Below, piece by piece: positions 12,601 through 15,600 of a DNA stretch of 31,139 bases. Numbering within the stretch: the first letter of the stretch is position 1; the number at the start of each line of letters is the position of its first letter. Position numbers: made by a program. Source of the DNA: a virus (lineage: Duplodnaviria; Heunggongvirae; Uroviricota; Caudoviricetes); IMG/VR virus record IMGVR_UViG_2531839193_000007. The stretch is one strand, 5' to 3'.

Positions 12601-15600
12601 TCCGTTGCTTGAAAAGCTGAAACTGGAACTGACAACACCTCATCGTGATTTCGACCGTAACGGACGTGTGATGGTCGAAAGTAAAAAAGACCTCGCAAAA
12701 CGCGAGATACCGTCACCAAACGTTGCTGATGCATTCATTATGGCCTTCGCGCCAATCGATACATCGCTGGATATCTGGGAACAGCTGGGGAGACAGGCCT
12801 GATGGCACGAAACAAACAAGCCCTGCGGCGAACTGTGCAGGCCACAGCTGATGGTTATGAGAATTTTATTGCCCGCGTAGGGATGCAGACACCTAACCAG
12901 CACTCAGCATCCACCTACCGGGCTAATTTCACCAGTCGTAACCGCATGCTGGTGGAATGGTCCTATCGTTCATCCTAGATCATCGGCGAAGCAGTCGATG
13001 CTATCCCGGATGATATGACCCGCAAAGGCATTCGCATCACTTCGGAAATTGATGCAAAAGATCGTGGCATTCTCGAATCACAACTGGATGAGTTGCAAAT
13101 CTGGGATGCGCTGAATGACGTGCTGAAATGGTCGCGCCTCTACGGCGGCGCGGTGGGTTTCATCATGATTGAGGGGTAGGCACCAATGACCCCGCTGCGA
13201 CCCGAAACCATCGGTAAGGGCAAGTTTAAGGGGATTCTCCCGCTCGACCGCTGGATGGTCGACCCGGCACTGACCCGCCGCATTAAAGATATGGGGCCGG
13301 ACCTGGGTAAACCTGAGTTTTACGATGTGGTGACCACAGCAACGGGAATTCCTGCCTGGCGCATTCATCACAGTCGCCTGATTCGCTTTGATGGCGTCAC
13401 GTTGCCATTTCAGCAGAAGATGACCGAGAACGAATGGGGAATGTCGGTTGTAGAGCGTATCTGGGATCGTCTTACCGCGTTCGACAGCGCTACTGTCGGC
13501 GCGGCGCAGCTGGTCTACAAGGCGCATTTGCGTACCTACAGCGTGGAGAAGCTACGCGAGCTTATCGCACTTGGTGGTCCTGCGTATGAAGCGTTGCTGA
13601 AGAATATCGACCTGATTCGACAGTTCCAGAGTAATGAAGGCATGACGCTCATGGACTCGCGGGATAAGTTTGAAACCCATCAGTACAGCTTCAGTGGTCT
13701 GGATGACATCCTTTCGCAGTTTGTAGAACAGATTAGTGGCGCTGTTGGTATCCCACTGGTGCGGTTGTTCGGACAGTCCCCGAAAGGATTTTCTACCGGT
13801 GATGCAGACCTTGCCAACTATTACGATCGCATCAGTTCGTTGCAGGAGAGGCGTTTACGTCTTCCGGTGCGGCGGATACTGGACATCATGCATCGTTCGG
13901 AACTTGGCAAGCCGCTGCCGGACGATTTCACGTTTGAGTTTAACCCGCTCTGGCAAATGTCTGATGTCGATCGCTCAACGGTGGCGTTAAACACCACCAA
14001 CGCAATCAGTACGGCGCTGGGTGATGGTCTGATGACACTGAAAGCCGCTATGACTGATTTGCGAGAAAATTCTGACGTAACCGGCATCGGGGCATCCATT
14101 ACCGACGAGGACATCGAGAATGCCGAAGATGAAGCGCCGCCCGGCATCGGCGAACCTGATGACGAACCGCAGGAGCCGTCAGGCGGAAATCCGGTATCGA
14201 ACCAGCCTACGCAGGATAGCGAGGGCGGTCGGAGACATCGTAAATGGTCGCTACGATGGTTCAAATGACAGTATCACGGAAATTATTGCGGCGCTGGAGC
14301 GTTACAGTGAAATCATCACCCCCTGGGCGACAAAGGTCGCGGAAAACTTTACTGCGGACCTAACCCGGCAGAACGAGAAAGTTTGGCGGCAACACAGCAA
14401 GAACATCAGTCGCGAGCTCCGCAATCTTGTGGAAAGCGCTCCTGTGGGCCAGGTGATGCAATCCATCATCGCCGAACAGGTCAAGTACATCAAATCTCTG
14501 CCTCTCGAGGCCGCAGACAGGGTGTACGACATCCAGAACAAAGCGATAGAGGCTGTTGTCACCGGTGGTCGGGCGGAGCAGTTTGCTAAAGAGATTGCAT
14601 CTACCGGCGATGTTGCTAAGTCTAGGGCCGATCTGATTGCCCGAACGGAACTGGGAAGAGCAACGGGCGCGCTGGATATGGCCCGAGCGATAGCTATTGG
14701 CTCGGATGGTTATATTTGGCGTACAGCCGATGATGGCGATGTCCGAGATTCCCACGATCACATGAAAGGTAAATTCGTCCGCTGGGATTCACCTCCAACT
14801 TTGGACGGCATGACCGGCCACGCGGGCGAGCTGCCAAACTGCCGCTGCTATAAAGAGATCGTGTTTGTTCGCGTTCCATTCGCAATGAAAAGGGCAGCAT
14901 AACCCATGAAATACTTTTTTGAGACCAGGCTCGGGGAAACCCGATACCGCCTGGCTGACGGCTCGTTGCTGTGCAAAGACGTGCCGATAGGACGAACAGG
15001 TAAGCAGCTCTATGGTGCTGATGACCTGCCAAAACTGAAACCCGATAAGTTCGGTGAAATAGTCGTCACGCGTTCTCCTGAGCAGGTATTCCATCCGGCC
15101 ACGCTTGCCTCATTCGAAGGGATGAGCATCACGATCCTGCATCCTGAAGATGAAAACGGGAATGTGCGGCTGGTAAATCCCGAGAACTGGAAAGAGCTTG
15201 CTGTCGGGCACCTCCAGAATGTCCGGCGCGGGACGGGTGAGCAGTCTGATTTGATGCTGGCTGACCTTATCGTCAAAGACGAAAGCGCCATTCAGCTTAT
15301 CGAAGATGGCCTGCGCGAAGTGTCGTGCGGCTATGACGCGGAGTACGAGCAGACCGAGCCAGGTAAAGCCGAGCAGGTCGATATTACCGGAAACCATGTG
15401 GCTCTTGTCCCTAAAGGCAGAGCCGGAAATCGTTGTGCAATTGGAGACAGAGACACAATGGCAAATCAAAAGAAAAACTGGTGGAACCGCATGCGTGCGG
15501 CCATCAAGACAGGAGATGCCGACACCATGAACGAACTGGTGGAGTCGGCTCCCGCATCGGTTACAGGAGATGAGGGGGATTTGCCGCAGGGCGTTAATCT

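Follow-up and report, generated by a model that had tools for sequence, protein, structure and literature searches.

Portal proteins of the family considered here are functional virion proteins in active phages such as Pam3, E217, vB_EcoM-606R2, and SEN34, whose head module also encodes a cement protein and a DUF2213 protein. Laboratory amber (sus) mutants in morphogenesis carry TAG nonsense codons in essential head genes but are otherwise complete phages on suppressor hosts. The classical amber hot spots of lacI lie at Dcm sites and reflect 5-methylcytosine deamination; such mutations are G:C>A:T transitions at the methylated position. CCWGG (Dcm) sites are established hot spots for G:C>A:T change and are counteracted by VSP repair (PMC13250602, PMC2715241). 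Pseudogenes and IS-driven genome degradation have been described in Shigella (Hawkey et al. 2020, PMC7373316; Feng et al. 2011, PMC3218036), whose reference genomes contain at least 199 pseudogenes each (PMC7373316), and the routes of degradation, namely, nonsense mutation, IS insertion, and IS-mediated deletion, are those found at the locus reported here. These studies of Shigella do not treat the portal gene specifically; otherwise, there is no material difference between them and our locus.

The window, i.e., the whole 31,139-nucleotide stretch of IMG/VR record IMGVR_UViG_2531839193_000007, is a segment of a Shigella sonnei chromosome; over positions 3197-24266, it is colinear with the S. 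sonnei 53G chromosome (HE616528.1) at 99.9% identity. The element in it is a defective myovirus-type prophage at the S. sonnei pgl locus, the relatives of which carry ipaH. Like the phages named above, it has a portal gene of this family in a head module with a cement protein and DUF2213, but the window copy is interrupted twice, one interruption (W59*) being a CCTGG to CCTAG change of the type known from Dcm-site hot spots. This double-amber portal is an ordinary point-mutation pseudogene in a wrecked prophage. The features of the portal gene and its neighbors are as follows.

10684-11448, + strand: small terminase subunit, intact; PHROG 370 (E = 7.5e-95), colinear with the intact relative
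11399-12802, + strand: large terminase subunit, 467 aa, intact; Pfam PF04466, one synonymous change on the S. sonnei branch
12802-14268, + strand: portal protein pseudogene, 488 codons and TGA; 99.8% identical to the intact WP_000113499.1 gene
12974-12978: CCTGG, a Dcm site of the ancestral gene (which has only three CCWGG sites), changed to CCTAG
12976-12978, + strand: amber codon 59, TGG (Trp) to TAG via G>A at 12977
13177-13179, + strand: amber codon 126, CAG (Gln) to TAG via C>T at 13177
13723-13725, + strand: missense change A308V, GCA to GTA via C>T at 13724; apart from the two ambers, the only difference from the closest intact copy
14159-14902, + strand: Mu-F-like head morphogenesis gene, intact, overlapping the 3' end of the portal gene
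14906-16126, + strand: DUF2213 gene (head maturation protease/scaffold-like), intact, from profile matches
16130-16636, + strand: capsid cement protein gene, intact; the last surviving gene of the late operon

Translation of 12802-14268 on the + strand gives 488 codons and a terminal TGA, with TAG at codons 59 and 126 as the only internal stops, and the alignment to intact homologues is gap-free over 1467 nt, showing that there is no frameshift. The preliminary description of a portal frame with two in-frame TAG codons and nothing else wrong is thus correct, except that one missense change, A308V, accompanies the stops. An ORF listing divides the frame into pieces of 58, 54, and 360 aa (12802-12978, 13015-13179, and 13186-14268, respectively), which should be annotated as one portal pseudogene and not as three hypothetical proteins. 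When the stops were replaced, the protein matched Pfam PF06381 with an E-value of 1e-105 and 353.8 bits (cut-off, 33.8), the domain covering residues 55-402 with both stops inside it. The same sequence matched TIGR01555 (HI1409) with 255.5 bits (cut-off, 196.25), PHROG 146 "portal protein" (E = 3e-174), and, among solved structures, the portals of Pam3 (8hds, E = 6e-38) and E217 gp19 (8fvh, E = 9e-15). The gene lies directly 3' of the large terminase gene, the stop of which overlaps the portal start at 12802, and is followed by the Mu-F, DUF2213, and cement protein genes, which is the order of a head-morphogenesis operon. A portal subunit requires an uninterrupted frame, and here TAG stands at codons 59 and 126; the gene is therefore a pseudogene of the portal family by descent, not a functional member.

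Portal DNA matches were found in 382 E. coli complete genomes and seven phage records, and the portal DNA of Escherichia phages vB_EcoM-606R2 and SEN34 is 98% and 85% identical to that of the window, respectively. The closest intact copies (n = 3), those of E. coli FDAARGOS_944, FDAARGOS_943, and VL40, are annotated as one 488-aa gene, WP_000113499.1, a protein also recorded under the source name E. coli O28ac. They are identical to the window at 1464 of 1467 nt; the TAG, TAG, and GTA codons of the window correspond to TGG, CAG, and GCA in these copies, and all three differences are G:C>A:T transitions. These copies sit in ipaH-carrying E. coli prophages at pgl, the same chromosomal site, and share the portal neighbors and the pgl-side position with the window. 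Unlike the window, however, the FDAARGOS_944 and VL40 prophages keep the major capsid gene and the following genes downstream. More than 50 Enterobacterales loci from species-representative genomes also keep the portal as one continuous gene. Codon 126 is Gln (CAG or CAA) in every relative aligned there, comprising E. coli prophages, vB_EcoM-606R2, and the more than 50 representative-genome loci, among which are Shimwellia, Pantoea, Xenorhabdus, Yersinia, and Serratia. At codon 59, most relatives have Trp, and some Pantoea/Erwinia have Ala or Ser. CAG, TGG, and TAC had been proposed as the sense codons to be expected at the two stops; the close orthologues, which are intact, have TGG at codon 59 and CAG at codon 126.

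The 360-, 58-, and 54-aa fragments exactly match proteins named Shigella sonnei (e.g., Q3Z426_SHISS), each present in at least 1000 contigs, and codons 59, 126, and 308 read TAG, TAG, and GTA in 18 of the 18 S. sonnei loci compared. Both TAG-bearing 44-mers are present in four IMG/VR contigs; viral scans for these 44-mers returned only contigs with both TAGs, and a metagenome scan for the TAG126 44-mer returned no match. The 71-mers centered on the two TAGs had no exact match in the 275 and 331 E. coli complete genomes, respectively, that carry the segments, and the best matches in this set were all one mismatch off. Because intact relatives carry sense codons and the 71-mers have no exact match in E. 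coli, the ambers are derived, and within the data searched, S. sonnei is the only species in which the two are combined.

In the ancestral TCC TGG, the G at 12977 that was mutated faces, on the bottom strand, the inner cytosine of the Dcm site, the one that is methylated; W59* is accordingly a G:C>A:T transition of that cytosine, as in Dcm deamination. The comparison with the Dcm hot-spot system extends only to this stop: Q126* and A308V, checked for the same context, both lie outside CCWGG, and Dcm activity in the S. sonnei lineage is assumed. All single-base changes of the ancestral portal gene were enumerated. Stops are created by 49 of 794 G:C>A:T transitions (6.2%), which comprise 28 TAG, 17 TGA, and four TAA. 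TAG is therefore the commonest nonsense product of such transitions in the portal, and because it makes up 28 of the 49, two stops of this same type have a probability of about one third, given two such stops. The probability of at least two nonsense changes among three substitutions was p = 0.011 for G:C>A:T transitions (range, about 0.004-0.011), whereas that of a second nonsense change among two further hits, once the first stop exists, was p = 0.12. The nominal p of about 0.01 is weakened because of the hot spot, the neutrality of a second stop, and the post hoc selection of the case. It had been argued that two ambers without a frameshift are not what random decay usually looks like; this argument proved to be weak, given the predominance of TAG among the possible stops and the position of W59* on a Dcm hot spot.

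On the S. sonnei branch, 12 substitutions fall in the colinear block 8902-16651 (7.75 kb), of which four are synonymous, six missense, and two nonsense; G:C>A:T transitions account for seven of them. Changes that are nonsynonymous or nonsense outnumber synonymous ones by eight to four, a ratio that would agree with relaxed selection, although the counts are small and the polarity is only partly established. The portal holds three of the 12 branch changes versus about 2.3 expected by length, and the 2.5 kb of head genes downstream of it have no S. sonnei-specific change, indicating that the decay is uneven.

The surrounding prophage is damaged by the following IS elements.

599-1862, - strand: IS3-family element in the early region, 99.4% identical to a copy at 28403-29665
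5586-6832, - strand: IS3-family element, in place of three of the prophage's four tRNA genes
7571-8901, - strand: IS2, 1331 bp, which splits the holin gene, the flanks overlapping by 5 bp
16652-17419: IS1, which abuts ATGA at 16648-16651, the first 4 nt of the major capsid (DUF2184) gene
20015-20782: another IS1, in the orientation opposite to that at 16652-17419; ybhH and ybhI deleted and ybhJ truncated (5' end lost)

Homology to the intact prophage stops at the IS1 at 16652-17419 and resumes just upstream of pgl; compared with the intact prophage, approximately 15 kb of capsid, neck, tail, and baseplate genes are absent from the position after this IS1. The statement in the preliminary description that the neighboring terminase and head genes are intact is therefore true of the small and large terminase, Mu-F, DUF2213, and cement genes but not of what should follow, since the major capsid gene due at 16648 is cut after 4 nt by IS1 and the genes from capsid to tail are missing. 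Essential functions have thus been lost beyond the portal, namely, the capsid-to-tail genes, the holin, and the tRNA array. Recent pseudogenization, which had been offered as one of two readings of the TAG codons, is supported by the presence of only three transitions in 1467 nt, by the TAGs in all 18 S. sonnei loci, and by a prophage broken by IS1, IS2, IS600, and IS3-family elements. We call the element at 599-1862 IS600 because its transposase ORF is 272 aa long and because IS600 is annotated in the related region of FDAARGOS_943; IS600 copies lie on both sides of the prophage region.

Taken together, it is very probable that the gene is a recent portal pseudogene, fixed in all sampled S. 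sonnei, that arose by two spontaneous G:C>A:T transitions and is not subject to suppression. The two transitions, which changed Trp59 TGG and Gln126 CAG to TAG, would have been independent. W59* would have arisen by 5-methylcytosine deamination at the Dcm site (CCTGG>CCTAG), provided that Dcm was active in the lineage, as we infer. Q126*, a C>T change of the ordinary sort, probably preceded it. The first stop, or the loss of the capsid and tail genes through IS1, would have lifted selection from the portal; with the gene free of selection, the second stop and A308V would be neutral, both this neutrality and the order of events being deduced. The fragments would then be neither read through nor suppressed and would have no role in virion assembly. 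Three points stand against this account: the nominal excess of nonsense changes, the uneven decay, and a full-length portal with Val308 in one Logan contig. As it stands, the locus would be a textbook example of how Dcm deamination and a G:C>A:T bias yield ambers, and of how point mutations and IS elements jointly dismantle a prophage in a young host-restricted pathogen.

The order of the changes was approached by exact-sequence look-up. A 125-aa ORF with Trp59 intact that ends after Gly125 was found in three Logan contigs, and a 417-aa ORF from Met72 with Gln126 and Val308 was not on record in this look-up. The 360-aa fragment that still has the ancestral Ala308 was found as EGI96254.1 of S. 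dysenteriae 155-74, an ORF that begins at Met129, and S. dysenteriae Sd197 ABB62211.1 is likewise a 360-aa ORF from Met129, with extra substitutions of its own. S. dysenteriae was absent from the loci returned by the genome-contig portal scan. These sequences suggest that Q126*, which may be common to S. dysenteriae, came first, with W59* and A308V as later additions in S. sonnei. One short Logan contig (3575 bp), however, encodes the full-length portal with Val308, Trp59, and Gln126, which clashes with A308V having followed Q126* and with a simple linear order; it could represent homoplasy, recombination, or an assembly chimera. A stronger version, in which the Q126 amber predates S. sonnei and is common to S. 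dysenteriae lineages, so that a portal-defective ipaH prophage would have moved between Shigella lineages, we consider unlikely. If it were true, the prophage would have needed a transfer route, for which a helper phage, chromosomal recombination, and growth in naturally suppressing hosts come into question.

Among the rival explanations of the ambers, the one that survives best is that the first stop was positively selected during domestication or inactivation of the prophage and that only the second was neutral, although we regard this as quite improbable. The nominal excess of nonsense changes over expectation, the presence of the allele in every S. sonnei genome sampled, and the ipaH cargo that relatives of this prophage type have kept would fit with such selection. 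Loss of the portal, however, does not stop induction or lysis, which leaves the benefit unclear, and fixation is expected anyway in a young clonal lineage. Moreover, IS-mediated loss of the structural genes already disables the phage, and a hot-spot origin accounts for W59* without selection.

It is still less credible, and indeed very improbable, that the prophage is or recently was functional in an amber-suppressor host of the supE/supF type, in which the TAGs are read through. Both stops are of one suppressible type, TAG, and a suppressor inserting Gln would give back the wild-type residue at position 126, but it would put another residue at Trp59, and TAG is in any case the likeliest nonsense outcome in the portal. 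A search with ARAGORN found no suppressor tRNA in the window, which has a single tRNA with the anticodon CAT, or in the intact relative, with the anticodons CAT, TCT, TGT, and TCC. Whereas a suppressor-dependent (sus) phage, like the laboratory mutants, has a complete set of virion genes, the phage in the window is structurally incomplete: the late operon stops at IS1, with no major capsid or tail gene beside it, and IS2 interrupts the holin gene. Because these adjacent genes are lacking, read-through could not rescue the element. The amber-suppressing background envisaged in the preliminary description was thus not borne out, and there is no evidence for natural amber suppression at the portal locus. 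The other genes of the block 8902-16651 contain no in-frame TAG, and prophage-wide stop-codon recoding was rejected on this count.

That the TAGs are sequencing or assembly errors, or that the three ORFs are separate genes, has a negligible probability: apart from the three ORFs listed by gene callers, no support for it was found, 18 independent S. sonnei assemblies and four IMG/VR contigs agree exactly in the TAG-bearing sequence, which rules out error, and intact relatives encode one continuous 488-aa portal with a Pfam domain spanning both stop positions, which rules out split genes.

The G12977>A change that produced W59* also made a CTAG tetranucleotide. In the S. sonnei-type chromosome CP022672.1, a 1153-bp element lies inside this CTAG, with TA duplicated on both sides (positions 2809-3961 of locus L020; window 12976/12977). 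The element, whose ends are inverted, codes for a transposase of 343 aa that contains a DDE_3 domain, and it was identified as IS630; W59*, by making CTAG, thus supplied the target for this later insertion. Other S. sonnei assemblies have further breaks in the DUF2213 or cement gene, some of which may be long-read indel errors.

Further rearrangements were seen elsewhere in the window. The surviving tRNA gene at 5515-5588 (anticodon CAT, tRNA-Ile in relatives) overlaps the boundary of the IS3-family element with its last bases. The inverted IS1 pair (16652-20782) brackets pgl and ybhD, and on its near side, the structural genes and the position of ipaHb in the relative are gone. A degraded, frameshifted tail-fiber segment at 29664-31139 matches, at 99.3% identity, the stretch directly 5' of ipaHb in the intact prophage. 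It adjoins the IS600-like copy, beside which lies a second prophage remnant (integrase, 24601-25671, next to ybhC). The junction implies an IS-mediated rearrangement, and ipaH may lie just past the end of the window. The product of ORF 30315-30770, near the right end, was not on record in an exact protein look-up. Between ybhJ and ybhC, a 103-bp tandem-like direct repeat (93% identical) occupies 22973-23075 and 23066-23167 and is also present in the E. coli relative.

Beyond annotation, the locus is of little importance, but fragments of the pseudogene appear to have been turned into PHROGs database families and so to have already seeded protein-database "families." The 54-residue family phrog_28295 (matched over residues 1-54 of 54) corresponds to the fragment between the two ambers, 13015-13179, and the 283-residue family phrog_12751 ("unknown function") covers the portal C terminus within 13186-14268. 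Some members of the portal family are called "anti-CBASS protein Acb1 family protein" by RefSeq (E. coli C, B, and AS19; e.g., NZ_CP029371.1 1317395-1317465). The Pfam, PHROGs, and PDB matches point to a portal, and NCBIfam gives the window protein TIGR01555 (HI1409 family) only; the Acb1 label on these members is possibly a naming artifact.
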